Of a stretch of DNA of 64,000 bases, positions 15,730 to 34,646 are shown piece by piece. The stretch comes from Nitrospirota bacterium (GTDB lineage: Bacteria > Nitrospirota > UBA9217): positions 1,472,001-1,536,000 of the forward strand of contig CAVVUN010000015.1 of assembly GCA_963751455.1 (NCBI GenBank). The letters are read 5' to 3'. The notes under the pieces were generated by a model, which saw nothing but the letters and a program-made list of their open reading frames with translations, did no database searches and was not told the origin of the DNA. Position 1 is the first letter of the stretch. Every line of letters starts with the position of its first letter. Made by a program: the position numbers and the translations under genes.

Positions 15730-16104
15730 ATGACACCAGCTACCTATCTTCCGGAACACTTCCTGCCAGTAGTGGTTTTTCTGCTGCTCGGCACGGCCGT
15801 AGGGCTCGGGATGCTCATTGCCGGATGGTTTATACGGCCAAAGAATCCCTATCCCGAAAAGCTGCTTACGTACGAATCCGGAATCACCCCCTTCATGGAT
15901 GCACATCAAAAGTTTTCCATCCGCTATTACATCATTGCAATGCTGTTCCTCATATTCGACATCGAAGCAGTCTTTCTCTATCCCTGGGCCGTGGCATTTA
16001 ACCGGATCGGTATGTACGGTCTCGTGGAAATGGTGATTTTCATCGCGATTCTGCTCGTCGGATATTTCTACGCCTGGAAGAAGGGGGCTCTCGAATGGGA
16101 ATAA
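15730..16104 (+). CDS. nuoA: NADH-quinone oxidoreductase subunit A
   Basis: [33 protein letters not shown]. Confidence 0.96.
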
Positions 16105-16574
16105 TGCAGAACCTTTTTGAAGAAGGCTACGTTTCGACGACCGTCGATTCGTTCCTTAATTATTGCCGGGCGAGCTCGATATGGCCGATGACGTTCGGTC
16201 TCGCCTGCTGCGCTATCGAAATGATCCAGTACTATTCCGCCCCCCAGCATGACTTCGACCGTTTCGGCACCGTGCCGCGGCCTTCACCGAGGCAGTCCGA
16301 CCTCTTGCTCGTTGCGGGCACCCTCACCAAAAAAATGGCCCCTATCGTGCGAAGAGTGTACGATCAGATGCCCGAGCCGCGCTATGTGATCGCAATGGGC
16401 AGCTGCGCAAGTTCGGGCGGCATCTTCAATACCTACAGCGTGGTCCAGGGCGTGGATAATATTGTACCCGTCGACGTCTATATCCCCGGCTGTCCGCCCA
16501 GGCCGGAAGCGCTGATGAACGGCATTATCAAGCTTCAAGAGAAAATTAAAAAAGAGAAGTATATCCGGAAATAG
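16095..16574 (+). CDS. nuoB: NADH-quinone oxidoreductase subunit B
   Basis: [29 protein letters not shown]. Confidence 0.96.
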
Positions 16575-16664
16575 CCAGTAACACCGATCATTTCACATCC
16601 CATATCGTTTATCTCAAAAACTGCGCACCATGCGTGAGATTGGTGCGGCCATTGATGAGGTTGT

Positions 16665-17135
16665 ATGGATCCCTTGCAGATTGCCAAAATGATAGAAGAA
16701 AAGTTCGCGGGCCAGGTGCTCGCGATCACGTCATACGCCGGACAGGTCGCGGTCGCGCTCAAAAAAGACATGATCAGGGAAGTCTGCCGCTACGTTCATG
16801 ACGAACCGATGCTGAAGATGGACCACCTGGCGGACGTTACCGCCGTGGATTATTCCAAGTACCCGGGCGATTCCGGGCCGCGCTTCGAGGTCGTCTACAA
16901 TATGATTTCGACCGAGCACCGGCACCGAATCCGGCTGAAGGTGAGGGTGCCGGAAGAGGACCCGAGAGTGGACACCGTCAGCCAGGTCTGGCATACCGCC
17001 AACTGGCATGAACGCGAAACCTATGATCTCATGGGAATCAGGTTTGACGGCCATCCGGACCTTCGCAGGATTCTGCTGCCGGAGGACTGGGAGGGCCACC
17101 CGCTCAGGAAGGAATACCCGCTGAAAGGTTATTGA
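16665..17135 (+). CDS. nuoC: NADH-quinone oxidoreductase subunit C
   Basis: TAVDY, RFEVVY, NWHERE.YDLMGI.F.GHPDLRRIL, GHPLRKEYPL. Confidence 0.96.
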   Translation: MDPLQIAKMIEEKFAGQVLAITSYAGQVAVALKKDMIREVCRYVHDEPMLKMDHLADVTAVDYSKYPGDSGPRFEVVYNMISTEHRHRIRLKVRVPEEDPRVDTVSQVWHTANWHERETYDLMGIRFDGHPDLRRILLPEDWEGHPLRKEYPLKGY

Positions 17136-17156
17136 GAAAAAACCCGAAATGCCTTA

Positions 17157-17242
17157 TCCGCAGATTTCACAGATAGACGCAGATTTGATATAAGAAATTA
17201 AGGTTGGATTTAATTCCGTGAAATCTGCGTGATCTGCGGATA
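17157..17242. repeat. Palindromic 9-mer (CGCAGATTT-type) repeat element
   Basis: ATCCGCAGATTTCACAGATAGACGCAGATTT ... AAATCTGCGTGATCTGCGGAT. Related copies at 22563-22643 and 33087-33164. Confidence 0.75.
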
Positions 17243-17309
17243 CATGACCTAAGCAGTTTACTTTTGGCTACTGTTTGGAATTTGATATCTGAATTTCCAA
17301 GGTGAAAAT

Positions 17310-18509
17310 ATGTCTCCTACCGATACCGAGAAGAAAGAAATCGTTCAGAAGGAAATAACCTTAAATATGGGTCCGCAGCATCCGGCCACCCACGGCGTGC
17401 TTCGCCTGGTGCTGGATCTGCAGGGAGAAACCATCGTCCGCTGCGACCCGCGTCCGGGCTACCTCCACCGCGGCATCGAGAAGCTGATGGAGAACAGGAC
17501 CTACCATCAGAACATCCCGATCACCGACCGGCTTGAGTATATCACCTGCATGAATAACAACCTCGGCTGGGTCGTGGCCGTTGAGAAGCTTGCCTCCATC
17601 GAGGTTCCGGAGCGGGCCGAGTTCATCAGGACGATCATGGCCGAGCTTACACGGCTTTCCGGGCACCTTGTCTGGCTTGGAACCCATGCACTCGACATCG
17701 GAGCCATGACGGTCTGCATGTACACCCTGCGGGAAAGGGAACTTATTCTCGATCTTGCGGAGATGGTTACAGGAGCCCGCCAAACCGTAAGTTATGCCCG
17801 AATCGGAGGCGTCCGAAACGATGTGTCGCGCGAGTTCATCGACAAGTGCCGGGAATTCACGGAGATTTTCCCCAAACGTCTTGAAGAATATGACACGATG
17901 ATCCGTCAGAACCGGATCTGGCTCAAACGCACGGTCGGAATCGGCGTAATGACGGCGGAGGAAGCCGTCAACTACGGCCTGACGGGCGGTTCCCTGCGCG
18001 GCTCGGGCGTAAACTACGATCTCCGTAAAGTGGAACCCTATGCTGCATACGATAAGGTGGAATTCGACGTGCCGCTCGGCCGGAACGGAGACGTCTATGA
18101 CCGGTATATCGTGCGGATCAACGAGATGCGCCAGAGCAACCGTATCATAAAGCAGTGCCTGGACATGCTCCCGGCCGGCCGCGTTGTCAGCGACGATCCG
18201 CGCTACGCCATTCCCGAAAAGAGCCAGGTGATGCAGAGCATGCAGTCGCTCGCGCACCAGTTCGTACTCATGAGCAAATGGATTCCGATGCCCAAGGGCG
18301 AGGTCTATGTGGCGACCGAGGCGCCGAAAGGCGAACTCGGCTTCTATATTGTAAGCGACGGAAGCGGCAGGCCGTACCGCGTCAAGATCCGCGCCCCATC
18401 CTATGTGCATATAAGCTCCCTGCCGAAGATGGTGACCGGGCACATGGTTGCCGATGTGATTGCCTGTATCGGGACGATCGATATTGTGCTCGGCGAATGC
18501 GATCGATAA
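17310..18509 (+). CDS. nuoD: NADH-quinone oxidoreductase subunit D
   Basis: [41 protein letters not shown]. No NiFe CxxC pairs. Confidence 0.96.
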
Positions 18510-18525
18510 GCAGAGGGGCCAGACC

Positions 18526-18879
18526 ATGAATCTGAGAGAGATCACCCGGCTTCTCAAAGCCAAAGTGCTGACAGGCGACAGTATCATCGATGAAATCGAA
18601 GTGGACCGCTGCTTCAGCGCTGACCTGATGAGCGACGTCCTCGGCCGGACCTACGCGAACGGCATCCTGATAACGGGTATCACGAATCCCCAGGCGGTTC
18701 GCACGGCCGATATTGCGGAAATCAAGGCGGTATGTGTTGTTCGCGGAAAGCAGCCGGAGGCGGGGGCGGTTTCCCTCGCAAAGCAGAAGGATATACCGCT
18801 TTTCATCACGGAACTGACCATGTTCGAGGCATGCGGAATTCTTTATACGAACGGCCTCCGGGGGGTTGCCGAACGGTAG
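18526..18879 (+). CDS. DRTGG-domain protein
   Basis: SADLMSDVL, LITGITN.QAVRTA.IAEI.AV.VVRGK.P, MFEACGILY. Confidence 0.85.
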   Translation: MNLREITRLLKAKVLTGDSIIDEIEVDRCFSADLMSDVLGRTYANGILITGITNPQAVRTADIAEIKAVCVVRGKQPEAGAVSLAKQKDIPLFITELTMFEACGILYTNGLRGVAER

Positions 18880-18887
18880 ATTGTGTG

Positions 18888-19841
18888 ATGACAGAGCAGG
18901 GTAAAGATCAGGCAACCGTTGACCGGTTGACCAAGACCCAAGAGATGGTCTATGAGCTTACCGTCGGCGAGGTGATGGCCCCGAAGATGGTGAGCGTCGG
19001 GCCGGACCAGACGATGTCCGAGTTCAGGATGATCCTGCGCGATAACCGCATCTCAGGGACCCCAGTCGTGGAAAACGGGAAACTGGTGGGGATGATCAGC
19101 ATCGAAGACCTGATCAATGCCTTCAATGACAACGCGATCAACTCCACGGTACGGGAGAGGATGAAACCTAAGGTCGAGTGCCTGTACGATGACGAACTCC
19201 TGGTCCACTGCATTGCCAAGTTTTCGAAATTCGGGTACCGCCGCTACCCGGTGCTGAACCGGGACAATGAACTGCTGGGCATAATTACGAAGGGGAGCAT
19301 CGTCGAAGGGCTGCTCAAAAAACTCGAGGTCGAATACGAACAGGCTGAATCGAAGGCATCGTTGGTACGTCACCGCCCAACCATGAGGAAATTTTTCGAA
19401 GACGTATCCGCTGACGAAATTAGTTTCACGTTCAAATATTTTGTTGCCGGCCAGACGCTCAAGGAAGCAGGCAAGGCGGCCAGCGAGCTCAAGAACGCCC
19501 TGAAAAAGCTGGGTGTCTGTCCGCCGCTCCTCAGGAGGATCGGCGTTGCGACATACGAGGCCGAGATCAATCTCGCATCCTATACAACAGGAGGAGAGAT
19601 CCGTGCCCAGGTTGAAAAATGGGGAATCCTCGTTGAAGCGATCGACAGCGGTCCCGGCATTCTCGACGTGGAACAAGCGCTGCAGCCGGGATATTCAACG
19701 GCGCCAGATTGGGTCCGGGAACTGGGGTTTGGGGCGGGCATGGGGCTCGTAAACATTAAGAAATGCGCCGATGAGATGAACCTGAAATCATCGGTGCCGG
19801 ACGGAACGCATCTGACAATGCAGTTCTATTATACGAGTTAA
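18888..19841 (+). CDS. CBS-pair plus RsbT/anti-sigma-type Ser/Thr kinase (HATPase) fusion
   Basis: Two CBS domains (ISGTPVV..GKLVGMIS; RRYPVL...LLGIIT), then AG.AASELK..L..LG, YEAEIN, DSGPGI.D...A...GYSTA...RELGFGAGMGL. Confidence 0.88.
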   Translation: MTEQGKDQATVDRLTKTQEMVYELTVGEVMAPKMVSVGPDQTMSEFRMILRDNRISGTPVVENGKLVGMISIEDLINAFNDNAINSTVRERMKPKVECLYDDELLVHCIAKFSKFGYRRYPVLNRDNELLGIITKGSIVEGLLKKLEVEYEQAESKASLVRHRPTMRKFFEDVSADEISFTFKYFVAGQTLKEAGKAASELKNALKKLGVCPPLLRRIGVATYEAEINLASYTTGGEIRAQVEKWGILVEAIDSGPGILDVEQALQPGYSTAPDWVRELGFGAGMGLVNIKKCADEMNLKSSVPDGTHLTMQFYYTS

Positions 19842-19846
19842 CGAGT

Positions 19847-20206
19847 ATGGTGCCCATGAAACTGAACGACCTCGTGAAGGAATTCAGCCTGGAAGTGAAA
19901 GCGGGCGCGGACAGCCTCAACGCCGAAGTGACCGCGGGATACGTAAGCGATCTTCTGTCAGACGTTCTGGCGCACGCCGAAGACGGCGCCCTTTGGGTTA
20001 CGCTGCATATTCACCAGAATATCGTGGCCGTCGCTTCGCACAAGGGGCTCTGCGGGATCCTTCTGGTCCAGGGCAGGCAGCCGGAAAAGGACACCATCAG
20101 GAAGGCGGAGGACGAGAAGATCCCGATTATGGTCAGCCCTCTTTCCGCATTCGAGCTTGTTGGCAGATTGTATAAGGCGGGAATTCGTGGCGCTGAGGCG
20201 GATTAA
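19847..20206 (+). CDS. DRTGG-domain / HPr-kinase N-terminal-like protein
   Basis: GYVSDLLSDVL, LWVT...H.NIVAVA, A.DE.IPI..S...AFE..GRLY. Confidence 0.85.
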   Translation: MVPMKLNDLVKEFSLEVKAGADSLNAEVTAGYVSDLLSDVLAHAEDGALWVTLHIHQNIVAVASHKGLCGILLVQGRQPEKDTIRKAEDEKIPIMVSPLSAFELVGRLYKAGIRGAEAD

Positions 20207-20933
20207 GGCTGATCTTCATCTGCACACATGCCTTTCCCCCTGCTCCGGTCTGGATATGTCGCCCCGTGAAGTGGTGAATGCGGCGATCCAGAAGGGTTTG
20301 GGCCTGATCGGCATATGCGACCATAACTCGGCCGAGAACGTTCTTGCGGTGAGGAAGGCCGGCGAACGGAACGGTTTGATGGTCGTGGGCGGTATGGAAG
20401 TGACCTCTTCGGAGGAAGCGCATTTACTCGTATTTTTTGATTCGGATGACGATCTTCTGGAGTTCCAGGACTATATTTACCGGCACCTGTCGGGCCGCAA
20501 CGACGAACACTCCTTCGGTTTGCAGGTGATCGCCGACGATGAGGACGGGGTAACCGGTTTCTGCGACCGGCTTCTGATCGGCGCTACATCGCTATCCGCG
20601 GAAGCGATCGTTGCAAAGGCCCACGCGGTGAAAGACGGCAGCCTGGTGATCGCGGCGCACGTTGACCGTGAATCGTTCAGTATCATCGGCCAGTTCGGGT
20701 TCATTCCCGCGGGGCTGGGACTGGACGCTCTTGAAGTGTCGGCGAAAATGACAGCGGCTGAGCTCAAGGCCCGGCATCCCGAGTGCGGGAACTACCCGGT
20801 CGTAACCGGGTCGGATGCGCACAGCCCTGACGACATCGGAAAGTGCTTTACCTGGGTGACCGTCGGGGACGGATCAATCGCAGAGATCAGGAAAGCCCTG
20901 GCGGGCACGGATGGAAGGAAGGCGGAGTGCTGA
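20187..20933 (+). CDS. PHP-domain phosphoesterase (putative phosphatase)
   Basis: DLHLHTCLSPC, CDHNS, GME.T..EE.H, AHVDR, GSDAH. Confidence 0.88.
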   Translation: MALRRIKADLHLHTCLSPCSGLDMSPREVVNAAIQKGLGLIGICDHNSAENVLAVRKAGERNGLMVVGGMEVTSSEEAHLLVFFDSDDDLLEFQDYIYRHLSGRNDEHSFGLQVIADDEDGVTGFCDRLLIGATSLSAEAIVAKAHAVKDGSLVIAAHVDRESFSIIGQFGFIPAGLGLDALEVSAKMTAAELKARHPECGNYPVVTGSDAHSPDDIGKCFTWVTVGDGSIAEIRKALAGTDGRKAEC

Positions 20934-20937
20934 GTCA

Positions 20938-21471
20938 GTGGAAGACCTCTCGCTGCATGTTCTTGATATCGCCGAGAACTCGGTCCGCGCAGAAGCAAAA
21001 ACAGTAGAGATCATCGTAACGAGGGACCTTTCCCGGGATATTCTCCGGGTCGAGGTGGTGGACGACGGGAGGGGAATGGACGCAGCGACGCTTGCAAGCG
21101 TTCGCGACCCGTTCTTTACCACGAAACATAAGAAAACCGGCCTTGGCATCCCGCTCCTGTCGCAGGCGGCTGAACAGACAGGAGGACAGTTCTCTGTCGA
21201 TTCCCGCCGCGGAAAAGGCACCCGGGTTGCTGCTTCGTTCCGGTGGAGTCATGTAGACCGGCCGCCGGTAGGCAGCATGGCTGAAACGCTCCTGACGCTT
21301 ATTGCGGGGCATTGCGACAGGGATTACATATACGAAGAACGGGAAGGAGAGTATTCCTTCCGGTTCGATACCCGGGAGATCAAAGCGGATCTCGAAGGGG
21401 TCCCGATCACCGAGCCGTCCGTGCTGAACGCGATCAGGGACATGCTGAAGGAAAATATCAGGATCAGGTAA
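20938..21471 (+). CDS. Stand-alone HATPase (histidine-kinase-like) ATP-binding protein
   Basis: EDLSLHVLDIAENS, DDGRGM, DPFFTT, GLGIP, HVDRPP.G, FDTREIK. Confidence 0.88.
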   Translation: MEDLSLHVLDIAENSVRAEAKTVEIIVTRDLSRDILRVEVVDDGRGMDAATLASVRDPFFTTKHKKTGLGIPLLSQAAEQTGGQFSVDSRRGKGTRVAASFRWSHVDRPPVGSMAETLLTLIAGHCDRDYIYEEREGEYSFRFDTREIKADLEGVPITEPSVLNAIRDMLKENIRIR

Positions 21472-21548
21472 AAACTGATTTATTAAAAGTGCCAGAATAA
21501 ATTATATTTCATCTCACATTTTCCGTTCAAGATGAGAAGAGGTAGATA

Positions 21549-22064
21549 ATGAGTAAAGAAGCTGCCGTACAAAATAAAACCGAAAATGAACCGGTCGAAA
21601 CGATCCCACGGGAGAAGTTCCAAAAGATCGATGCGATCATAGAAAAATACAGGGACAAACCCGGCTCACTGATCCCGGTCCTGCAGCAGGCGCAGGACGT
21701 CTGCGGTTATCTGCCGCATGCCGTGCAGCGCTATATTGCGAAGGGCATGAAGATGTCGCCGAGCGTCGTGTTCGGCGTTGCAACCTTCTATTCGTTCTTT
21801 ACGCTGGTGCCGCGCGGAAAACACGTCATCCGGGTCTGCCTGGGCACTGCCTGCTATGTCAAAAGAAGCGAAGAGATCCTCCTTAAAATCAAGGACGAAA
21901 TGGACCTCGAGGTCGGAGAAATAACCAGGGACAAGAAGTATTCGCTCGAGGCTGTACGGTGCCTCGGCGCCTGCGGGCTGGCGCCCGTCGTCGTTGTCGG
22001 ACAGGACACGTATGGCGACGTGGCGGCGACGAAGGTGATGGACATCATTAAGAAGTACGAGTAG
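21549..22064 (+). CDS. nuoE: NuoE/HndA/HydC-type [2Fe-2S] subunit
   Basis: GVATFYSFF, VCLGTAC, RCLGACGLAP. Confidence 0.9.
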   Translation: MSKEAAVQNKTENEPVETIPREKFQKIDAIIEKYRDKPGSLIPVLQQAQDVCGYLPHAVQRYIAKGMKMSPSVVFGVATFYSFFTLVPRGKHVIRVCLGTACYVKRSEEILLKIKDEMDLEVGEITRDKKYSLEAVRCLGACGLAPVVVVGQDTYGDVAATKVMDIIKKYE

Positions 22065-22161
22065 GTCCTTATTGTAAATTGTACCCTGCTCTAGCGAAGA
22101 CGCGGGCATAAACAAATTGTAAAATGCAAAATGCAAAGTGTGGAATACACGGAGTGACACA

Positions 22162-22545
22162 ATGGCCAAACTGACGATTGCGGATTTGAAGAAGATCAAG
22201 GAAACGTACCACGCCAGTCAAGCCCTGCGCGAGGGCGGATTCCGGGTAAAGATTACGGTGCATATGGGCACCTGCGGAATTGCAGCGGGGGCGCGTCCGA
22301 TCATGAATGCGATCATGGAAGAACTGTCCAAGTCGAACCTCAAGGATGTTGCGGTCACTACTTCGGGCTGCGCGGGACTCTGCAGCAAGGAGCCCATGAT
22401 CACGATAGAACTTGCGGGCGAACCGCCGATCAAGTACATCGCCCTGACCGAGGACAAGACACGGAAAATTTTCGCGCAGCACGTCGTAGCCGGAAAGCCC
22501 GTAGCCGAGTACGCTTTGGTCGCCGGGCATGAGACGACGTATTAA
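22162..22545 (+). CDS. HndB/HydD-type thioredoxin-like ferredoxin subunit
   Basis: VHMGTCGIAAGAR ... TSGCAGLCSKEP ... I..QHVV.G.PV.EY (three Cys). Confidence 0.85.
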   Translation: MAKLTIADLKKIKETYHASQALREGGFRVKITVHMGTCGIAAGARPIMNAIMEELSKSNLKDVAVTTSGCAGLCSKEPMITIELAGEPPIKYIALTEDKTRKIFAQHVVAGKPVAEYALVAGHETTY

Positions 22546-22684
22546 AACGCAAAGGTTCTTTAACCGCAGATTACGCAGATAGCGCCGATTAAGACGCTTG
22601 GAAAAACCTTTTTTAATCTGTGTAATCTGAGCAATCTGCGGACAAGTTTTAAAAAGATTTCCAATTCAGGTTATGGAGTAAACT

Positions 22685-24475
22685 GTGGAGACGACATACC
22701 GTTCAAACATAATGATCTGTGCGGGCACCGGCTGCGTGGCAAACGGGTCCCTTAAGGTCAAGGACGCGCTGGAGACGGAGCTTATCAAGCGCAATCTTCA
22801 GAACGAGGTCAAAATCGTCCTTACCGGGTGCAACGGGTTTTGCGCCAAGGGCCCGGTCATCGTGGTCTACCCCGAAGACATCTTTTACCAGATGGTAAAG
22901 CCCGACGACGTGCCCCATCTCGTTGAGGAACACTTCATCAAGGGCCGTCCCGTACAGAAGTTCCTCTATACGCCGCCCGCGCAGAAAACCGCGATCCCGG
23001 TCATGAATGACATTCCGTTCTTCAAGCACCAGGTACTTCGCGCTTTGAGGAACCGCAGCCTGATCGATGCGGAGAAGATCGAAGAGTATATCGCGCGCGA
23101 CGGGTACATGGCAGCAGCCAAGGCGCTCCTGGAGATGACGCCCGAACAGATTGTGAACGAGATGAAAAAATCCGGACTCCGCGGCAGGGGAGGAGCAGGA
23201 TTCCTGAGCGGACTGAAGTGGGAGCTCTGCGCCCGCGTTCCGGGCGAGATTAAATACATCCTGTGCAACGGCGACGAGGGCGACCCGGGCGCGTTCATGG
23301 ACAGGAGCGTGATGGAAGCCGACCCGCACTCCGTGCTCGAGGGCATGATCATTGCGGCCAAGGCGATCAGCGCCCATTACGGTTATATCTATGTCCGGGC
23401 CGAATATCCGCTGGCCGTGCACCGGCTCCAGCTTGCCATCGACCAGGCAAAAGAGCGTGGGCTTCTGGGCAAGGACATTCTCGGTTCGGGCTTTGACCTC
23501 GATATTGAGATCTACCAGGGCGCCGGCGCCTTTGTATGCGGCGAGGAAACAGCGCTCATGGCCTCCATCGAAGGGAAACGCGGCATGCCGCGCGCCAAGC
23601 CGCCGTTCCCTGCGGTCAAGGGCCTCTGGCAGCGGCCCTCGGTTCTGAACAACGTCGAGACCTTTGCCAACGTGCCGCCGATCATCCTGAACGGGGCCGA
23701 CTGGTTTGCGAGCCTCGGCACCGAGAAGAGCAAGGGCACGAAGGTGTTTGCGCTCTCCGGAGCTCTGAACAATATCGGTCTCGTGGAAGTGCCCATGGGC
23801 ATCCCGCTCAAGACCATCATTTTTGATATCGGCGGAGGCGTCAAGGGCAACCGCAAATTCAAGGCCGTGCAGATGGGCGGACCGTCCGGCGGCTGTATCC
23901 CGGCATCGCTCATTGAGACGCCGGTCGACTACGAGAACATCAACAAGACCGGCGCGATCATGGGGTCCGGCGGTATGGTGGTCATGGACGAGACGACATG
24001 CATGCCGGCCATGGCAAAGTTCTTCCTCGAATTTACCGAGGACGAGTCCTGCGGCAAATGTGTCCCGTGCCGTATCGGGAACAAGACGCTCCTCAACATC
24101 CTCACCCGGATCACGAACGGCGAAGGCCGTGAAGGCGATATCGAGCTGCTGTTGAACCTGTCGCAGCAGATCAAGGATACTTCGCTTTGCGGTCTGGGCC
24201 AGACATCGCCCAACCCCGTGCTCACAACCATCAAGTATTTCCGGGAAGAGTACGAGGCGCATATCAAGGACCACAAGTGCCCGGCGCGCGTCTGCACGCC
24301 GCTTATCGAATTCAAGGTGAACGAGGAAAAATGCAAGAAGTGCGGTCTCTGTTCCAAGAACTGTCCGGTCGGGGCCGTAACCTGGGAGAAGGGCAAGACG
24401 GCCTTTATTGACAGGGAAAAATGCACCAAGTGCAAGACCTGCATAAAGAACTGCCGGTTCTGGGCGATTGATTGA
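22685..24475 (+). CDS. nuoF: Long NuoF (HydB/HndC-type) flavoprotein with extra N-terminal [2Fe-2S] and C-terminal 2x[4Fe-4S] domains
   Basis: CAGTGC..CNGFC; SGLRGRGGAGF; DEGDPGAFMDR; GGPSGG; ESCGKCVPCR..CGLG; H..DHKCPARVC; two C-terminal CxxCxxCxxxC. Confidence 0.92.
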   Translation: METTYRSNIMICAGTGCVANGSLKVKDALETELIKRNLQNEVKIVLTGCNGFCAKGPVIVVYPEDIFYQMVKPDDVPHLVEEHFIKGRPVQKFLYTPPAQKTAIPVMNDIPFFKHQVLRALRNRSLIDAEKIEEYIARDGYMAAAKALLEMTPEQIVNEMKKSGLRGRGGAGFLSGLKWELCARVPGEIKYILCNGDEGDPGAFMDRSVMEADPHSVLEGMIIAAKAISAHYGYIYVRAEYPLAVHRLQLAIDQAKERGLLGKDILGSGFDLDIEIYQGAGAFVCGEETALMASIEGKRGMPRAKPPFPAVKGLWQRPSVLNNVETFANVPPIILNGADWFASLGTEKSKGTKVFALSGALNNIGLVEVPMGIPLKTIIFDIGGGVKGNRKFKAVQMGGPSGGCIPASLIETPVDYENINKTGAIMGSGGMVVMDETTCMPAMAKFFLEFTEDESCGKCVPCRIGNKTLLNILTRITNGEGREGDIELLLNLSQQIKDTSLCGLGQTSPNPVLTTIKYFREEYEAHIKDHKCPARVCTPLIEFKVNEEKCKKCGLCSKNCPVGAVTWEKGKTAFIDREKCTKCKTCIKNCRFWAID

Positions 24476-26679: not shown

Positions 26680-26688
26680 GAGTTGAAC

Positions 26689-27771
26689 ATGCCAGAAATG
26701 ATACTCAATATTATCTATACGCTGCTGATTCCGGTCGCGGCCATGCTGGCTTTCATCCTGGCTAACGCCATGTATCTCCAACTGATGGAACGCAAGGTGC
26801 TGGCGCACATGCAGGGCAGGATGGGCCCGATGAGGACGGGTTGGCACGGAATTCTTCAGCCGGTCGCCGATGCCGTCAAATTCATCATGAAAGAGGACAT
26901 CATACCGGCCAAGGCGGACAAATGGGTGTTCAGCATCGCCCCCATCATCATGCTGGTCATGGCCTTCGGGGCCTTCGTGGCGCTGCCGTTCGGAGCTCCC
27001 ACCGATTTCTACGGCCTGGCGTCCCATAAAGTCCCGCTCTGGGTCTCGAACCTGAACATCGGGGTGCTGTATATCCTGGCGCTTTCCAGCATCGGAACCT
27101 ACGGTGTTATCATGGGAGGGTGGGCTTCCAATAACAAGTATTCGCTGATGGGCGGCTTCCGTTCCGCGGCCCAGATGATCAGCTATGAGATTCCGATGGC
27201 TTTCGCCATAGTCACGGTCGTTCTCATGACCGGATCGTTGAATCTGTCCGATATCGTTAACGCCCAGTTGAACCGGTGGTTCATTATAGCGCTGCCGGTC
27301 GGACCGGTCGTCTTCTTCATCTATATTATTTCTGCAGTGGCTGAAACCAATCGTGTACCGTTCGACCTGCCGGAAGCGGAAAGCGAACTTGTAGCCGGCT
27401 ACTTTACAGAATACAGCGGCATCCGCTTCGGCATGTTCTACATGGCTGAATATATCAATATGATGGTCGTATCGGTAATGGTCGCCATCATGTTCCTGGG
27501 CGGCTGGCTGCCTGTCCAGATACTTCCGAATACGGCGATCGGCCATTTTGCTGCCATTGCATTCCTGAACAGGGCTCTGGCCGCGATACCCGGCACGTTC
27601 TGGCTGCTCGGAAAACTTTACTTCTTCATCTTTTTCTATATGTGGATCCGGGCGACCCTGCCGCGGTACAGGTATGATCAGCTGATGGCGCTTTCGTGGA
27701 AATTTCTGTTGCCGCTTTCGCTGGCGACGCTGATGGTCACTGCGTTCATGAAGCAGGCGGGATGGCTGTAA
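26689..27771 (+). CDS. nuoH: NADH-quinone oxidoreductase subunit H
   Basis: ERKV.A.MQ.R.GP, LQP.AD..K, SYE, ETNR.PFDLPEAESEL, PRYRYDQ. Confidence 0.96.
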   Translation: MPEMILNIIYTLLIPVAAMLAFILANAMYLQLMERKVLAHMQGRMGPMRTGWHGILQPVADAVKFIMKEDIIPAKADKWVFSIAPIIMLVMAFGAFVALPFGAPTDFYGLASHKVPLWVSNLNIGVLYILALSSIGTYGVIMGGWASNNKYSLMGGFRSAAQMISYEIPMAFAIVTVVLMTGSLNLSDIVNAQLNRWFIIALPVGPVVFFIYIISAVAETNRVPFDLPEAESELVAGYFTEYSGIRFGMFYMAEYINMMVVSVMVAIMFLGGWLPVQILPNTAIGHFAAIAFLNRALAAIPGTFWLLGKLYFFIFFYMWIRATLPRYRYDQLMALSWKFLLPLSLATLMVTAFMKQAGWL

Positions 27772-27780
27772 CATTACCAC

Positions 27781-27812
27781 CCCTCACATAACCTCTCCCC
27801 TGAGGGGAGAGG
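27781..27812. repeat. REP-like palindrome (CCTCTCCCC-TGA-GGGGAGAGG)
   Basis: Perfect 9-bp stem preceded by CCCTCAC, between nuoH and nuoI. Confidence 0.65.
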
Positions 27813-27865
27813 ACAAAGATGAGGGGGCACGTACTTGAAGCTTCGAGCAGTAAGGAGTTATACCG

Positions 27866-28345
27866 ATGAGCAAAGTGAAAAAATTATTTAAAACCATTTT
27901 TCTGATTGAAATCGCCCAGGGTATGGCCTTGACGCTTAAGACGATGCTTACGCCTGCGGTCACCCGGCAGTATCCGAAGTTCAAGCGCAAGCCTTTCGAG
28001 GGCTCGCGCGGGCTGCACGCAATGCTGCGGGACGATTCCGGACAGAAAGAACGGTGTATAGGGTGCGGGCTCTGCGAAGCGGTCTGCCCCGCGAAAGCAA
28101 TAAAGGTAGTGACCTCGGAAGGGGCCGAGCATGAGAAGGTGGTAAACGCCTATGAGCTTGACCTGCTTCGGTGCGTATTCTGCGGTTTCTGCGTGGAGGC
28201 CTGTCCTGTGTCCGCGATAGTCATGACCCCCGATTTCGAACTGGCGTGCTATTCGAGAAAGGACGCATTCTATACCAAGGACCGGCTTGTTGAGATAGGC
28301 GACAAGTTCACGGGCGGGAAGGCGGTAATAAGCAATGATAAATAA
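27866..28345 (+). CDS. nuoI: NADH-quinone oxidoreductase subunit I
   Basis: T.QYP, RGLH, CIGCGLCEAVCP, CVFCGFCVEACP. Confidence 0.95.
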   Translation: MSKVKKLFKTIFLIEIAQGMALTLKTMLTPAVTRQYPKFKRKPFEGSRGLHAMLRDDSGQKERCIGCGLCEAVCPAKAIKVVTSEGAEHEKVVNAYELDLLRCVFCGFCVEACPVSAIVMTPDFELACYSRKDAFYTKDRLVEIGDKFTGGKAVISNDK

Positions 28346-28841
28346 GCTGATCTTCATGTATTTCGCCGCGGTAATCATCGCTTCGGCGGTTCTTACGATA
28401 ACGCGCCGGAACCCGATCCACAGCGTCCTCTTCATGCTGCTTCTGTTCTTCCATATCGCGGGCGTATTCGTGCTTCTCAATGCGGAGTTCCTGGCTGCTG
28501 TGCAGCTCATCGTTTACGCCGGAGCGATTTTGATACTTTACCTCTTCGTCGCGATGCTTTTGAATATAGGCCTGGAACGCCAGGCTGTCAGGGCGAACAG
28601 GTTTTGGCCCTGGATGGTGGGATTCGGAGTGCTTATCGCAAGCGAAATCACGCTTTTGATCTCACGCGGCGCTTTCCCTGGCGAGAACGGCCAACAAGTC
28701 CGCTTCGCGGGCGCGGGGGTCAAGGAATTCGGCGAAGTGCTGTATCAGAAATACCTGCTGCCGTTCGAGATAGCATCCGTCATTCTGCTGGTCGGACTGA
28801 TCGGAGCGGTCATGCTGGCGAAAAAAGGCGCAAACGACTAG
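28335..28841 (+). CDS. nuoJ: NADH-quinone oxidoreductase subunit J
   Basis: NPIHS, AEFLAAVQLIVYAGAI, PFEIAS.ILL. Confidence 0.95.
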   Translation: MINKLIFMYFAAVIIASAVLTITRRNPIHSVLFMLLLFFHIAGVFVLLNAEFLAAVQLIVYAGAILILYLFVAMLLNIGLERQAVRANRFWPWMVGFGVLIASEITLLISRGAFPGENGQQVRFAGAGVKEFGEVLYQKYLLPFEIASVILLVGLIGAVMLAKKGAND

Positions 28842-28936
28842 TGACAGAAGTTAGAAGACGGGAGCTAGAAAAAATCAGGTGTTTTCTCCTCCTGACTCCC
28901 GACTCCTGACTACTATATACGATTTTTGGAGGTCCT

Positions 28937-29239
28937 ATGATTCCCTTGTCCTGGTATATAATACTTAGCGCGTCGCTGTTCACCATCGGTATGATCGGTG
29001 TCTTATCCCGGCGCAATGTCTTCATCATCCTGATGTCGATCGAACTTATGTTGAACGCTGCAAATATCAACCTTGTCGCTTTTTCGCACTACCTGCAGTC
29101 GTTCACGGGTCAGATATTCGTGGTTTTTGTCATTACCGTTGCCGCTGCGGAAGCGGCTGTTGCGCTGGCGATTATTATTCTTATTGCGCGGAACCGCGGG
29201 ACAGTGTATGTGGATGAGTTTAATCTCCTGAAGGGCTGA
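28937..29239 (+). CDS. nuoK: NADH-quinone oxidoreductase subunit K
   Basis: [23 protein letters not shown]. Confidence 0.96.
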
Positions 29240-29249
29240 TTGTGAAAAG

Positions 29250-29356
29250 CAAACTCGAAATCCTAATGACGAAATTCTAAACAGCACGAATAACAAAAAA
29301 CTTGGTTATTCGGATTTTGGGATTTTCCAGGATTTTGATATTCGAATTTCGGATTT
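29250..29356. repeat. Palindromic heptamer-repeat element (CGAAATY/RATTTCG)
   Basis: CGAAATCCTAATGACGAAATTC ... TTCGGATTTTGGGATTTT..TTCGAATTTCGGATTT between nuoK and nuoL. A similar heptamer array lies at 28843-28912. Confidence 0.65.
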
Positions 29357-29375
29357 ATTTAACCGGGGTGCATAA

Positions 29376-31304
29376 ATGTTAAAATACGCGTTAATACCGA
29401 TATTACCGTTCACGGGATTCCTGATTGCAGGATTGCTCGGCAAGTACCTGAAGGAGAAGTCAGCGTACTTTACGATTGCCGCTGTCATCGGCGCCTTTTT
29501 GCTCTCCTGCAGCGCGCTCATCGACGTGCTGGGCGGGAACATCATCGATGAAAACCTTTATTCCTGGATATCCATCGGGACCTTGTCGGTGAATGTCGGT
29601 TTCCGGATCGACCAGCTCACCGTAGTGATGCTCATGGTCGTTACGACCTTGAGTTCCCTCATCCACATCTATTCCGTAGGGTACATGCACGGCGACAAGG
29701 GCTATTCCCGGTTCTTCGCCTACCTTAATCTCTTCACGTTCTTCATGCTCGTACTCGTGATGGCGAACAACTTCCTGCTCATGTTCGTTGGCTGGGAAGG
29801 GGTCGGCCTCTGCTCGTATCTGCTGATCGGGTTCTGGTATGAAAAGAAATCCGCGTCGGACGCAGGCGTCAAGGCGTTCGTCGTGAACCGGGTCGGCGAT
29901 TTCGGGTTTGTGCTCGGGATGCTGCTCATCTTCGTAACATTCGGAACCCTGCATTTCGGCGATTTGTTCACCGCGCTGACCACGGATGCAGCCAAGCAGA
30001 GCATCTCCCTGCTGGGAGGCGAGATCAGCGTTGTCACCCTGATTGCGCTTCTGCTGTTCCTGGGGGCCACGGGCAAGTCCGCGCAGCTTCCGCTCTACGT
30101 CTGGCTGCCGGACGCCATGGAAGGCCCGACGCCGGTCAGCGCCCTGATCCATGCGGCCACGATGGTGACCGCCGGTGTGTTCATGGTTGCGCGCTGCGCG
30201 CCGCTCTTCGCGCTCTCTGAAACAGCAATGAACACGGTCGCGATCGTGGGCGGCTTGACCGCTGTCTTTGCCGCCACCATCGGGCTCGTGCAGAACGATA
30301 TTAAACGCGTAATCGCCTATTCCACGATCAGTCAGCTCGGGTACATGTTCCTCGGACTCGGGGTAGGGGCGTTCTCCGCGGGTATTTTCCACCTGACCAC
30401 GCACGCGTTTTTCAAGGGCCTCCTGTTCCTCGCGTCAGGCAGCGTGATTCACGCGCTGTCGGGCGAGCAGGACATGCGCAAGATGGGCGGACTCAAATCC
30501 AAGATCAAGATCACCCACGCCGTATTCATCATCGGGTCGCTGGCCCTGGCGGGTATATTCCCCTTTGCCGGATTCTTCAGCAAGGACGAAATCCTCTGGA
30601 GCGCCTATAATGCTTCATCCCTGGGCCGGGCGCTCTGGGTGCTGGGTCTCGCAGGCGCTTTGATGACGGCGTTCTATTCGTTCAGGCTCATCTATCTCAC
30701 GTTCTACGGCAAGTCGCGCGTAGACCATGAGGTTGCGCACCATGTTCACGAATCTCCTGCTGTCATGACTGTGCCGCTGATGATTCTCGCCTTTTTCTCG
30801 GTGGTCATCGGCTGGATCGGCATGCCGGGAGCGATTATCCCTCACGCGAACCTGTTCGGAGATTTTCTCGCGCCCATTTTCCCGCATGCGCAGCACGCCG
30901 GAGAAGAAAGCCACTGGTTTGAGCTCGCGCTCATGGTGGTCTCGGTCGTCGTGGCCCTCGCCGGCATCAGGGGCGCATATGCGTGGTATGTGAAGAACCC
31001 GTCACGGCCCGATGTGTGGGCAGAAAAGTTCAAGGGCGCATACAATCTGCTCTTGAACAAGTACAGGGTCGACGAGGTGTATAATTATATCTTCGTCGAC
31101 GGGCTTGTCCACAAGCTGGCGAAGGTGCTCCATACCGTCGGCGATGTAAAGATGATCGACGGGTTTATCAACGGACTCGCCGAAACGATAGGAAACACCA
31201 GTGAGCGGGGAAGCAGGCTCCAGACCGGTTATGTGCAGCAGTATGCCTTCAGCATGGGTCTCGGTCTTATCGTACTGGTCGGTCTCTATTACGTTTTGAA
31301 TTAA
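29376..31304 (+). CDS. nuoL: NADH-quinone oxidoreductase subunit L
   Basis: GWEGVG, NRVGD, GKSAQ.PL..WLPDAMEGPTPVSALIHAATMV, HAFFK, FFSKD. Confidence 0.97.
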   Translation: MLKYALIPILPFTGFLIAGLLGKYLKEKSAYFTIAAVIGAFLLSCSALIDVLGGNIIDENLYSWISIGTLSVNVGFRIDQLTVVMLMVVTTLSSLIHIYSVGYMHGDKGYSRFFAYLNLFTFFMLVLVMANNFLLMFVGWEGVGLCSYLLIGFWYEKKSASDAGVKAFVVNRVGDFGFVLGMLLIFVTFGTLHFGDLFTALTTDAAKQSISLLGGEISVVTLIALLLFLGATGKSAQLPLYVWLPDAMEGPTPVSALIHAATMVTAGVFMVARCAPLFALSETAMNTVAIVGGLTAVFAATIGLVQNDIKRVIAYSTISQLGYMFLGLGVGAFSAGIFHLTTHAFFKGLLFLASGSVIHALSGEQDMRKMGGLKSKIKITHAVFIIGSLALAGIFPFAGFFSKDEILWSAYNASSLGRALWVLGLAGALMTAFYSFRLIYLTFYGKSRVDHEVAHHVHESPAVMTVPLMILAFFSVVIGWIGMPGAIIPHANLFGDFLAPIFPHAQHAGEESHWFELALMVVSVVVALAGIRGAYAWYVKNPSRPDVWAEKFKGAYNLLLNKYRVDEVYNYIFVDGLVHKLAKVLHTVGDVKMIDGFINGLAETIGNTSERGSRLQTGYVQQYAFSMGLGLIVLVGLYYVLN

Positions 31305-31365
31305 AATACGCAAAGCGCATGGCGCAATGGGTATGGGCAAAAGCGCGGATCTAATATCAAATTTT

Positions 31366-31465
31366 GCCACAGAGCACACTGAGGACACCGAGAAAAGCTT
31401 TGAAAGTTAATAAAATATATTCTGGGTTTTTTGCTTCCTCTGTGTTCTCCGCGACCTCTGTGGCT
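31366..31465. repeat. Palindromic 9-mer (CACAGAG-type) repeat element
   Basis: GCCACAGAGCACACTGAGGACACCGAG ... CTCTGTGTTCTCCGCGACCTCTGTGGC. Confidence 0.7.
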
Positions 31466-31529
31466 AAAAAGCTTTTCCGGCTTGTCCGGTTTAGTCAGTT
31501 TCCATGCAAATCGTTTAAAGGAGTATTCC

Positions 31530-33077
31530 ATGATTGAATTCATCCCGAACCAGCTCGGATATCCGCTGCTGAGTCTTTTAATCTTCGTACCGATAATCGG
31601 CTCGTTCATCCTGCTGTTCGTCAGGAACGCCCCGACGGTCAGGCTGATCGCCATCGCTTTTGCCGTTGTAGACCTCGCGCTCTGCATTCCACTGCTCCTC
31701 GGGTTCGATGGGACAACCGCAAATATGCAGTTCGGCGAGAGCCTTCCGTGGATCGCTGATTGGAGCATCAATTATAAGGTCGGGGTGGACGGGATCAGCG
31801 TCCTGTTCGTGGCGTTGACCGCTCTTTTGACGGTGATCTCCATAATGGTTTCCTGGACCGCTATCCAGGACCGGGTGCGGGAATTCATGGTAGCGGTCCT
31901 GTTCCTCGAAGCGGCGATGATGGGTGTTTTCATGGCGCTTGACCTCTTTCTCTTTTACATTTTCTGGGAGGCGATGCTGATCCCGATGTATCTCCTGATC
32001 GGGGTTTGGGGCGGACCGAACCGGCTGTATGCGGCAATCAAGTTCTTTCTCTATACGCTGGTGGGAAGCGTGCTCATGCTGATCGCGATCATAGCGGTTT
32101 ATATTTCCGCCGGCCACACTTTTGACGTGATTGCGCTTATGAACACCAAATTCGGCCACACGTTCCAGATGTGGGCCTTTGCCGCATTCTTTACCGCCTT
32201 CGCCGTAAAGGTTCCGATGTTCCCGGTCCATACCTGGCTGCCGGATGCGCACGTGGAAGCTCCGACGGCGGGCAGTATCATCCTTGCCGGGATCCTGATC
32301 AAGATGGGGGCCTACGGCTTCCTCAGGTTCTCACTGCCCTTTTTCCCGGATGCCGCGATTGCCTGGACCCCGGCCATCATGGTCCTGTCGGTCATCGCGA
32401 TAATTTATGGCGCATACATGGCGTTTGCGCAGACGGACTTCAAAAAACTGATCGCGTATTCGAGCGTGAGCCACATGGGGTTCGTGACCCTTGGTATTTT
32501 CGCCTTGAACAGCCAGGGGCTGGAGGGCGGAATTCTCCAGATGCTGAACCACGGGGTATCGACCGGCGCATTGTTCCTTGCTGTCGGCGTGATTTACGAG
32601 CGCACGCATACCAGAATGATCGCCGATTACGGCGGGATTGCCGCAAAGGTGCCGATCTACGCGACGTTCCTGCTGGTCATAACGCTGTCGTCCATAGGTC
32701 TTCCTGGAACGAACGGCTTTATCGGGGAGTTTACGATCCTGCTGGGCGCTTTCCTGCACTATAAACCGTACGCCGTAATCGCGTCCCTCGGCATCATTTT
32801 GGGCGCGGGCTATATGCTCTGGCTCTACCAGCGGGTGGCCTTCGGCAAGATAACGAACGAGCATAACGAGCATCTTGCGGACATGAATCTCAGGGAGATT
32901 GCGGCTGCGCTGCCGCTCGTAGTTCTCGTGTTTTTCGTCGGGTTGTATCCTAACGCGGCTTTCGGTGTGATGCATGCGTCCGTATCGAACCTGATCCAGC
33001 ACGTGAATGCCAAAGTCGGGACAGTTGCGCCGGTTGCGACGCAGGTCGCGACAGATGTAGTGAAGATGGTACAGTGA
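31530..33077 (+). CDS. nuoM: NADH-quinone oxidoreductase subunit M
   Basis: FWEAMLIP, KVPMFP.HTWLPDAHVEAP, KMG.YG, AYSSVSHMG, GLPG.NGF.GEF; AAGGAG RBS before ATG 31530. Confidence 0.97.
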   Translation: MIEFIPNQLGYPLLSLLIFVPIIGSFILLFVRNAPTVRLIAIAFAVVDLALCIPLLLGFDGTTANMQFGESLPWIADWSINYKVGVDGISVLFVALTALLTVISIMVSWTAIQDRVREFMVAVLFLEAAMMGVFMALDLFLFYIFWEAMLIPMYLLIGVWGGPNRLYAAIKFFLYTLVGSVLMLIAIIAVYISAGHTFDVIALMNTKFGHTFQMWAFAAFFTAFAVKVPMFPVHTWLPDAHVEAPTAGSIILAGILIKMGAYGFLRFSLPFFPDAAIAWTPAIMVLSVIAIIYGAYMAFAQTDFKKLIAYSSVSHMGFVTLGIFALNSQGLEGGILQMLNHGVSTGALFLAVGVIYERTHTRMIADYGGIAAKVPIYATFLLVITLSSIGLPGTNGFIGEFTILLGAFLHYKPYAVIASLGIILGAGYMLWLYQRVAFGKITNEHNEHLADMNLREIAAALPLVVLVFFVGLYPNAAFGVMHASVSNLIQHVNAKVGTVAPVATQVATDVVKMVQ

Positions 33078-33191
33078 CCATTTTTGTCCGCAGATTTCGC
33101 AGATTTTAGGATTAAATCGCTTTAATCTTTTAACAATCTGCGCAGATCTGTGTAATCTGCGGATATATGTCTTCGAATCTAAGGAGTTTTT

Positions 33192-34646
33192 ATGTCAAGC
33201 ATGTTTACGCAGTTCTTACAATCCATAACGCCGATTTATCCCGAGGTCGTCATGATCACCGTGGCGCTTACGGTGCTCATCTTCGATTTTTTCATTGAAA
33301 AGGACCGGAAAGCGTACCTTGGATGGTACAGCCTGCTCGGCGTGCTGATTGCCGCCTTTGCCACGTACCGCCTGATGGGCTCGAGCGGCGTGTTCTTCGG
33401 CGGTACCTTCCAACTCGACGCGTTTTCAACGTTTTTCAAGTTCGTTTTTTATATTACCTGCGGTCTGGGTATCCTTGTCTCGATCAATTACCTGAAGATA
33501 GAGGACATTCACCGCGGCGAGTACTACGCGCTGATCCTGTTCGCGACAACAGGCATGATGCTGATGGCGTCGGCGGCGGACCTTATTACGCTTTATCTCG
33601 GGTTGGAACTGATGGCGCTCTCGGTCTACATTCTTGCCGGCTTTATGCAGAGCGACAACCGGTCGAACGAGGCCGCTATTAAATATCTCCTGCTCGGCGC
33701 CTTCTCGTCGGGCATCATGATCTACGGCATGTCCTTGCTGTACGGGTTGACCGGCACTACGAACCTCAGCGGCATACTTGCGTTTTTGAAGGGAGCGGAC
33801 ATTACCAATCCGGCGCTTTTCCTTGCGATGATCATGCTCGTGGTCAGTTTCGGTTTCAAGGTCGCGGCAGTCCCGTTCCATATGTGGGTGCCGGACGTAT
33901 ATGAAGGCGCCCCGACGTCGGTCACAGCTTTCATGTCCGCAGGTCCCAAGGTTGCGGGTTTTGCAGTGCTGCTTCGGGTTTTCCTGTACTCGCTGGAGCC
34001 GCTGCATGCGCATTCGACCGCCATTCTCGCGGGTCTTGCCGTTCTTACCATGGCGGTCGGAAATGTCATGGCCCTGTCGCAGATGAACATTAAGCGCATG
34101 CTTGCGTATTCCTCGATCGCACATGCGGGCTACGCACTGGTCGGGCTTGCAGCAGGCGGACCCGAAGGCGCGGCAAGCGTCATGCTTTATGTCTGCATTT
34201 ACGCCCTGATGAACATGGGTGCCTTTGGTGTTGTCATAATGCTGAGAAAAGCGGGGGAGCGCGGCGAAGATATCATGGACTTCGCGGGCCTTGGAAAAAC
34301 GAACAAGACGGCCGCCTTCCTTATGCTCATCTTCATGTTTTCGCTTACAGGCATTCCTCCGACGGCCGGCTTCATCGGGAAGTTCTACATCTTTAAGTCC
34401 GCGGTCGAGGCCGGCTTTACCTGGCTCGCCGTTGTCGGTGTCCTGTTTTCTTCGATCAGCGCCTTTTTCTACCTTCGGGTCATCATGGTTATGTACATGA
34501 AAGAACCGAGGGCTGCGATCGAAATGAGCACGTCGCCGTCCCTGGCCCTTGCTCTTGCAATTTCGGTTACCGCGGTAGTCTACATAGGCATTCTTCCGCA
34601 GGAGCTTCTGAATTACGCGCGGGCTTCGATTGCAGGGCTGATGTAA
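33192..34646 (+). CDS. nuoN: NADH-quinone oxidoreductase subunit N
   Basis: EAAIKY, FK..AVPFHMW.PDVYEGAP, KRMLAYSSIAH.GY, GIPP.AGF.GK. Confidence 0.97.
   Translation: MSSMFTQFLQSITPIYPEVVMITVALTVLIFDFFIEKDRKAYLGWYSLLGVLIAAFATYRLMGSSGVFFGGTFQLDAFSTFFKFVFYITCGLGILVSINYLKIEDIHRGEYYALILFATTGMMLMASAADLITLYLGLELMALSVYILAGFMQSDNRSNEAAIKYLLLGAFSSGIMIYGMSLLYGLTGTTNLSGILAFLKGADITNPALFLAMIMLVVSFGFKVAAVPFHMWVPDVYEGAPTSVTAFMSAGPKVAGFAVLLRVFLYSLEPLHAHSTAILAGLAVLTMAVGNVMALSQMNIKRMLAYSSIAHAGYALVGLAAGGPEGAASVMLYVCIYALMNMGAFGVVIMLRKAGERGEDIMDFAGLGKTNKTAAFLMLIFMFSLTGIPPTAGFIGKFYIFKSAVEAGFTWLAVVGVLFSSISAFFYLRVIMVMYMKEPRAAIEMSTSPSLALALAISVTAVVYIGILPQELLNYARASIAGLM

Follow-up and report, generated by a model that had tools for sequence, protein, structure and literature searches.

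The closest described relatives of the operon treated here are the Bfu enzymes, for which Schut et al. (2022, PMC9304861) have predicted a 14-subunit form called Nuo-Bfu, a term that appears nowhere else in the literature we searched. In the accessible part of that paper, Nuo-Bfu covers clades 38 and 39 among 51 Nuo sequences, with 26 and 16 sequences counted for the two clades and nine lying outside; clade 38 includes for example Geobacter sulfurreducens, and clade 39 Planctomycetes and Nitrospirae. The reaction predicted there leads from NADH and reduced ferredoxin to menaquinone with proton pumping, on the same energetic argument as used below, and a fourth (D) subunit is tabulated for the FeFe-Bfu enzymes only. 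Here we analyse an operon of this kind in a 64,000-nucleotide stretch (the window; positions 1,472,001–1,536,000 of contig CAVVUN010000015.1, assembly GCA_963751455.1) of a Nitrospirota bacterium, with all feature positions counted from its first letter unless a contig is named. Its type may be among the nine outlying sequences of Schut et al., unremarked in what is accessible of that work, and two papers on Nitrospirota complex I (PMC9040806 and PMC10203281) treat that enzyme, in their accessible parts, without this form.

The operon consists of 20 co-oriented genes (15730–34646, + strand), namely nuoA-D, five inserted genes (the cassette), a nuoE-type gene (E'), an HndB-like gene, a gene F for a 596-residue NuoF-type protein, nuoG and nuoH-N, and all 14 nuo-type genes are found among them. 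Base composition is even over the 20 genes (G+C content 0.49–0.59, and 0.62–0.79 at third codon positions). Judged by its genes, the complex I is complete, with BfuC and BfuB plus an HndB-like protein standing in for NuoE and NuoF. By analogy with characterised Bfu enzymes we propose that it is a proton-pumping NADH-and-ferredoxin:menaquinone oxidoreductase working in this direction, and we give this reading a probability of roughly 0.6. Gene content, cofactor ligands, signatures, the resident NuoD and NuoG, the three forms that the locus takes in relatives, and conservation are read directly from the genomes, while the electron path is modelled on the solved Bfu enzymes, as far as PMC9304861 and PMC12018979 are accessible. 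A preliminary description of the window had seen a bifurcating HydBC/Hnd-type module instead of a standard N-module; this is two-thirds right, as E and F are replaced but NuoG is the resident subunit.

The F gene (22685–24475, +) encodes a BfuB/HydB/HndC-type flavoprotein with a flavin mononucleotide (FMN) site and the sites B1–B5, assigned from ligands, signatures and PDB matches. The B5 ligands are C12/C17/C49/C53; GAFM stands at 202, GAGAFVCGEETAL at 279, VFAL at 354 and GGPSG at 398; B1 is C456/459/462/502, B2 is C439/T477/H526/C532/C537, and eight cysteines make up B3/B4. By analogy, the Cys3His site B2 more likely holds Zn than an Fe-S cluster because of Thr477 (PMC12018979, accessible part). 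PF01512, PF10589 and PF00037 are matched above the Pfam cut-offs. In the PDB search, the protein scores 852 bits with 7t2r_B, 810 with 7q4v_B, 752 with StnABC (8oh5) and 716 with NfnABC (9n5u), versus at most 382 with canonical NuoF/Nqo1, and its 502 bits with TIGR01959, the canonical NuoF profile, stay below the cut-off of 559. According to the accessible part of Losey (2020, PMC7311640), bifurcating beta subunits are recognised by A/E232, M234, an FMN-site Phe, GGPSG and extra Fe-S domains. F has A203, M205, GGPSG and the extra domains, and for Losey position 367, whose mapping is not unique, it has Phe at all three candidate positions (283, 341 and 355).

The preliminary description had regarded a 596-residue NuoF with extra clusters, a Cys/His site, GAFM and GGPSG as typical of HydB/HndC, and ligand and signature positions, PDB matches and trees all agree with it. 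Its VFAL signature is present as well, but the published FMN-site Phe (Schut 2022, Suppl. Fig. 10) is F283 in GAGAFVCGEE; F has both motifs. Overall, the signature columns are complete in the window and in 25 other rows combining HndB, cassette and nuo genes (with one X at one Cys), and A203/M205, GGPSG and B3/B4 are missing from all nine rows of short, nuo-linked NuoF. BfuB is 88–94% identical within the family, and the extra sites are therefore strongly constrained; among named relatives, 'Nitrospirae bacterium GWC2_56_14' is nearest (F 90–91%), which makes the host a Nitrospirota, of class UBA9217.

The E' gene (21549–22064, +; PF01257) is of the BfuC/HydC type, with C1 [2Fe-2S] ligands C97, C102, C138 and C142, and its product clusters in the tree with Bfu-type E, away from the native NuoE that accompanies short F. 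Between E' and F, where an HndB/HydD-like gene had been noticed before, there is indeed the gene of a putative fourth subunit of thioredoxin-like fold (22162–22545, +), with a weak PF01257 match. The protein is a homologue of the NfnB/StnB B5 domain, a free-standing copy of it, and has only three cysteines (C38, C70 and C74, all conserved), the first ligand position being occupied by His34. The nuoG product (24553–26679, +; 708 residues), identified by ligands and identity as a resident NuoG in the role of a Type 3 BfuA, has complete A1–A5 ligands. As described earlier, it has neither an H-cluster nor the catalytic site of formate dehydrogenases: it reads VDLLARLK where these enzymes have TDTCARVCH, and the Cys/Sec-His (Sec, selenocysteine) of the Mo/W site is missing, which rules out a formate dehydrogenase (Fdh-Bfu). 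An [FeFe]-hydrogenase is ruled out too: the genome contains no PF02906 match, with controls positive, and the module therefore has no H-cluster partner.

The remaining nuo genes, all on the + strand, are nuoA (15730–16104; PF00507), nuoB (16095–16574; PF01058, TIGR01957), nuoC (16665–17135; PF00329, TIGR01961), nuoD (17310–18509), nuoH (26683–27771; PF00146, and NF004741 above cut-off), nuoI with two [4Fe-4S] sites (27866–28345; TIGR01971 and NF004538 above cut-off), nuoJ (28335–28841; PF00499), nuoK (28937–29239; PF00420), nuoL (29376–31304; TIGR01974), a single nuoM with its probable start at ATG 31530 (31530–33077; TIGR01972) and nuoN (33192–34646; TIGR01770), the last three above their cut-offs. 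These matches confirm the full nuoA-D and nuoH-N set of the preliminary description, and with it a quinone-type NuoD devoid of NiFe cysteines. NuoD clears both NCBIfam NuoD cut-offs (NF004739/TIGR01962; 562 vs 360 and 559 vs 459 bits), with GPQHPATHG at 21 and DRLEY at 73. Its sequence contains no CxxC, the Ni-binding motif of group 4 [NiFe]-hydrogenases, and such a hydrogenase is thereby ruled out. The His and Tyr of NuoD, the tandem Cys38-Cys39 of NuoB and the conserved charged residues of NuoL, M and N are all present in the sequence; we take these to mark the quinone site, the N2 cluster and the antiporter subunits, respectively.

We have searched 36 genomes of the family for the locus. 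In 21 of them the cassette lies directly behind nuoD, as in the window, and the examined operon stretch holds no short nuoEF, so the Bfu pair is the sole head encoded there. In seven genomes this operon carries a classical short nuoEF and no cassette, and two (G004 and G020; loci L135 and L136/L199) carry both heads before one nuoG, in the order D-E-short F-cassette-E'-HndB-BfuB-G. Two more have the new module with the preceding stretch outside view, and an orthologous NuoD was not found in the other four. The run D-cassette-E-HndB-F-G-H is contiguous in 19 of 26 family loci, the other seven being clipped by contig ends. As a separate observation, in L198 (G006:C9) a second nuo cluster ends with E-short F-G directly 5' of a window-type operon.

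NuoD groups with native Nitrospirota NuoD (support 97), sister to the canonical Thermodesulfovibrionia operon (89). NuoG is regarded as resident because of gene order and because it is 62–65% identical to NuoG of the canonical sister operons versus 36–41% to the G of stand-alone modules. Native Nitrospirota NuoE is joined in the tree by the family's old short E but not by E'. Since NuoD and NuoG are resident and the locus exists in three states, we infer that a block of cassette, E', HndB and BfuB has been grafted onto a native complex I, in which only E and F were replaced. This block would have descended from tetrameric [FeFe]-hydrogenase operons and been inserted between nuoF and nuoG, and descendants would then have lost either the old pair or the new one. 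In a tree of D+G+H+I from 33 operons the three head states are intermixed, and each pair of states requires three changes or more. The pattern would be explained most simply by an ancestor that had both heads and by differential loss, with the rooting inside the family unsure; repeated transfer is the alternative.

The phylogeny of F against HydB, HndC and canonical NuoF, which the preliminary description had called for, places it with the bifurcating B subunits. For F we used 138 of 169 rows and then 50 of those 138, and for G 65 of 110 and then 33 of 65, thinned by identity or picked by hand; L081–L110 (short duplicates of L111–L140) and L120 (a frameshifted assembly) were left out of the alignments. 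The sister group of the family BfuB is formed by stand-alone Thermodesulfovibrionia modules (99 in the 138-row tree, 92 in the 50-row tree), and both sit in a group that has a hydrogenase-linked member (99, 50-row tree). BfuB is separate from that of Geobacteraceae/Desulfuromonadales (clade 38, the Geobacter type; 50-row tree) and from the trimeric Nitrospirota Nuo-Bfu (families f5/f10, whose equation with clade 39 is an assumption). A single clade with these two types was rejected by the approximately unbiased (AU) test (p 1.8e-5, with 11 of the 50 rows), where test groups had been defined after a first tree was viewed. Related Nuo-Bfu operons with HndB and cassette are found in deltaproteobacterial assemblies (L001, L002, L028). 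One BfuB origin for these and the window type is weakly rejected (AU p 0.029, 50 rows), and the cassette tree has both in one unresolved group (95).

Some observations on these relatives stand by themselves. Stand-alone modules of the Thermodesulfovibrionia type (L137, L138, L142–L154, L160, L003, L005, L006, L023) comprise a long E (~290–320 residues, with an N-terminus receiver-like by eye), HndB, BfuB and a non-catalytic G of 820 residues. Their position is often within or adjacent to a canonical nuo operon (L003, L005, L006, L151–L154; inside it in L151), and they are possibly an alternative head used in trans. In G114 (L189, L148) the nuo operon has no E, F or G, and the HndB of its stand-alone module lacks all three cysteines. 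L141 (G090:C89:5410–9067) carries a tandem duplicate of BfuB within a nuo operon; in the second copy (631 residues) GGPSG is replaced by GGSAG and a column of the NADH site is altered.

Between nuoD and E' there are five genes (18526–21471) that had escaped mention before, all on the + strand. The first (18526–18879) encodes a DRTGG-domain protein with a conserved ADLMSDVL (PF07085, E 1e-4, under cut-off) and no match in a PDB sequence search. The second (18888–19841) is a CBS pair fused to a SpoIIAB/RsbW-like ATPase, a putative Ser/Thr kinase (PF00571, PF13581; TIGR01925 E 8.5e-11, under cut-off), whose ATP-binding boxes are invariant across 41 homologues and whose predicted model (pLDDT 83) matches CBS pairs and SpoIIAB (1til_E, root-mean-square deviation 2.4 A). 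A second DRTGG-domain protein with a conserved SDLLSDVL follows (19847–20206; PF07085, E 5e-5; Atlas DRTGG and HPr-kinase-N clusters at 0.94–0.95), and then a PHP-family protein, a putative phosphoesterase (20187–20933; PF02811, PF13263; start uncertain, 20157–20193). The last is a stand-alone HATPase_c protein (20938–21471; PF02518), the positional counterpart of Tte0891, as the order E-HATPase-HndB-F-HydA in L067 equals hydC-tte0891-hydD-hydB-hydA of Caldanaerobacter (PMC4694547, accessible part).

Cassette genes adjoin H-cluster hydrogenase genes in seven loci (L039, L048, L050, L065, L067, L139, L140), and by such neighbourhoods the set is an accessory cassette of tetrameric [FeFe]-hydrogenase operons. 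Among 80 BfuB loci, HndB and cassette occur together in 22, neither in 47, HndB only in 9 and the cassette only in 2, counts from loci clipped at 10 kb and from related genomes that are not independent. Because the cassette travels with the Bfu core after loss of the H-cluster subunit, it seems to be tied to the core rather than to hydrogen. On domain content and co-inheritance only, we put forward the hypothesis that the five genes exert a phosphorylation-based control of the head, with adenylate charge read through the CBS pair. A further step, which we consider speculative and rather unlikely, would be that the four-subunit bifurcating heads are exchangeable and gated by the kinase: the CBS-SpoIIAB protein would sense adenylates, the PHP protein act as phosphatase and the DRTGG proteins as phospho-acceptors. 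The both-heads relatives, with NuoEF and a Bfu pair ahead of one nuoG, would then build two versions of the pump, NADH-only or NADH plus ferredoxin, and switch between them.

The check for a second canonical nuoEFG, suggested by the preliminary description, has found one just outside the window. It belongs to an operon (G000:C15:1453009–1468621, − strand) that ends 3.4 kb left of the window start, 19 kb from the present operon and divergent from it, and encodes a fused NuoCD of 579, a short NuoF of 424 and a NuoG of 930 residues. A fused-CD NuoD is matched in 32 of the 36 family genomes, and this second complex I would stay the NADH-only enzyme. The genome also contains futalosine-type menaquinone genes, five genes of the 2-oxoacid:ferredoxin oxidoreductase type, small ferredoxins, Rnf, Wood-Ljungdahl and carbon monoxide dehydrogenase (CODH) clusters, a dsr cluster, NiFe hydrogenases and genes of the haem-copper oxidase family.

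In the mechanism we propose, NADH would bind at FMN, and reduced ferredoxin would dock at B3/B4 and deliver its electrons through B3/B4 and C1. The FMN-B1-C1 site would merge the two inputs, and four electrons would leave via B1, the NuoG chain, NuoI and N2 to menaquinone (MK), driving the standard three-antiporter membrane arm. The five inserted genes would likely serve as phosphorylation-based control of the complex. The overall reaction would be NADH + 2 Fd-red + 2 MK → NAD+ + 2 Fd-ox + 2 MKH2 (Fd, ferredoxin), and it would be reversible. With literature potentials, NADH to menaquinone affords 2.3–3.3 H+ per two electrons at 150–180 mV, while the NADH/ferredoxin mix affords 3.3–4.2, which fits a three-antiporter pump. 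That is, with both donors four protons per two electrons become affordable.

Several points weigh against this proposal. No experimental study of any Nuo-Bfu enzyme and no functional study of the DRTGG/kinase/PHP cassette was found in the literature searched, where PMC11837493 and PMC6288185, in their accessible parts, contain nothing on the cassette. The bifurcation signatures derive from hydrogenases and dehydrogenases, not from quinone reductases. Pfam SLBB gives no match on F at E ≤ 0.001; the region aligns gaplessly to 7t2r_B with GGPSG intact at 398–402, and apart from this profile match the window agrees with the sequence definition of Bfu in the accessible part of Schut et al. The NuoG tree alone (33 rows) could not place G: neither a grouping with stand-alone G (AU p 0.134) nor one with canonical Thermodesulfovibrionia G (p 0.053) is rejected. 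HndB of Hnd probably has no redox centre (PMC10084766, accessible part), and Rnf and the second complex I together can already pass ferredoxin electrons to quinone. Moreover, ferredoxin coupling is not forced, because NADH to menaquinone is downhill and FMN-B1-NuoG is the canonical wire.

The last point leads to the best surviving competitor, which we regard as unlikely: a conventional NADH:menaquinone complex I that has borrowed a diaphorase and whose extra clusters would be passengers or flavin tuners. The seven sister operons with classical NuoEF imply that one head can replace the other on the same NuoG, and the ferredoxin use of the enzyme is argued by analogy, not from an assay. But the B2–B5 ligands, the A/M pair, the Phe and GGPSG are kept throughout the clade, while non-bifurcating relatives in the data set have lost them together, and in the genomes that keep the fused-CD complex I a second plain NADH enzyme is less needed.

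We hold it distinctly improbable that the NADH-and-ferredoxin:menaquinone oxidoreductase mainly runs in reverse, oxidising menaquinol at the expense of the proton-motive force and bifurcating the electrons to NAD+ and ferredoxin, which would feed the Wood-Ljungdahl pathway and ferredoxin oxidoreductases working in the carboxylating direction. Bfu cores are reversible (PMC9304861, accessible part), the host has the Wood-Ljungdahl/CODH clusters, the oxidoreductases and lithotrophic options (NiFe hydrogenases, haem-copper oxidases), and an energy-charge-sensing CBS kinase would suit an enzyme that consumes the proton-motive force. However, there are three antiporter subunits only, with no extra NuoM as in the 2M complexes proposed for reverse transport, 4 H+ per two electrons barely span the gap of 0.30–0.32 V, and Rnf can make reduced ferredoxin. 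Finally, although in Thermodesulfovibrionia the sister clade of BfuB belongs to stand-alone E-HndB-F-G modules that are not part of nuo operons, it is very improbable that E'-HndB-BfuB(-G) is a soluble enzyme merely sharing the operon with a membrane arm that is headless or has another head, since a G without catalytic site leaves it no third substrate, G is the resident NuoG with nuoH starting 3 bp after it, the 21 genomes have no old nuoEF left in the operon, and even the stand-alone modules are often located within or next to nuo operons.

Upstream of nuoA there is a sigma-70-type promoter (15630–15658, +; TTGACA-17-TAATAT, 10 of 12 consensus matches), whose TTGACA is conserved in 20 of 21 relatives, the remaining one being truncated by a contig end. 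Promoter and terminator scans of the operon gave near shuffled levels (17 vs 12.3 and 29 vs 21.1), and from them we rely on this conserved promoter alone. Two sequencing runs examined for expression contained only short, divergent contigs from relatives, which may derive from DNA and thus speak neither for nor against transcription. An AT-rich motif at ~15683–15712, downstream of the promoter and ahead of the nuoA ribosome site, is conserved in family members and is a possible operator; a Rex-type operator, judged by a consensus that we presume, was rejected as it is not conserved in relatives.

Some features of the genome lie apart from the operon. Two further BfuCBA clusters are present (G000:C15:10068–15173 and C15:588112–593263): one stands behind Wood-Ljungdahl genes, with its Fdh-like A split (DHCARY-stop, the next frame following), where the stop is possibly selenocysteine, and the other is flanked by Nfn-like genes and a CODH gene. 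The dsrA gene falls into two frames (G000:C2:327010–328180), either an assembly error or a pseudogene; dsrB and the other genes of its cluster seem intact. Elsewhere in the window there are an archaeal-type Hel308-like helicase (3660–5807), a compact ribonucleotide reductase of 584 residues (48254–50008) and a run of large frames for beta-helix/Ig-like/DUF6531 surface proteins, several apparently fragmented (51845–63666).

The Nuo-Bfu concept and its reaction have already been published as a prediction (Schut et al. 2022), and the preliminary description was right to expect that related Nuo-linked modules had been catalogued. What the present genomes appear to add is a hydrogenase-derived four-subunit head with a signalling cassette, a separate origin and a series of heads within one family. 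This family is a natural control series, in which the same NuoG and membrane arm carry classical, bifurcating or both heads; there is none such in the Geobacter type, and it shows that a BfuBC core can be placed on an ordinary NuoG. The hosts are known here from genome assemblies only, which limits direct tests. If ferredoxin use is true, this complex I would keep 4 H+ per two electrons while reducing menaquinone, by adding low-potential electrons to those from NADH.

Compared with canonical NDH-1, including the seven family operons and the second operon of this genome, NuoA-D, G, H-N and the conserved quinone-site and antiporter residues are shared, whereas the canonical NuoF has ~420 residues, T/K and Y at the signature positions and no extra clusters, in contrast to the 596 residues and B2–B5 of the window. 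The solved Bfu enzymes (NiFe-HydABCSL of Acetomicrobium mobile, 7t2r; NfnABC of Thermococcus sibiricus, 9n5u; StnABC, 8oh5) provide the closest BfuB structures, but they are soluble, have H2 or NADP(H) as third substrate and lack a membrane arm. The tetrameric [FeFe]-hydrogenases (Hnd of Solidesulfovibrio fructosivorans; HydABCD of Caldanaerobacter subterraneus and Acetobacterium woodii) share BfuC, HndB/HydD, BfuB and the HATPase gene; according to the accessible parts of the reports, HydD co-purifies in C. subterraneus (PMC4694547) and is predicted to be cofactor-free in A. woodii (PMC6288185). The window differs from them in having no H-cluster subunit, so that electrons would go to NuoG and quinone, not to protons. 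With Nuo-Bfu, as accessible in Schut et al., the window shares the BfuBC core and Type 3 BfuA (A1–A5) amid a full nuo operon and the same predicted reaction. It differs in a fifteenth, HndB-like gene and the five-gene kinase/PHP/DRTGG cassette, in a BfuB apart from the Geobacteraceae and trimeric Nitrospirota forms, and in a replacement recent enough that relatives keep classical or both heads. Overall, the operon is predicted to work like Nuo-Bfu, but by its sequence it lies outside the Geobacter clade.

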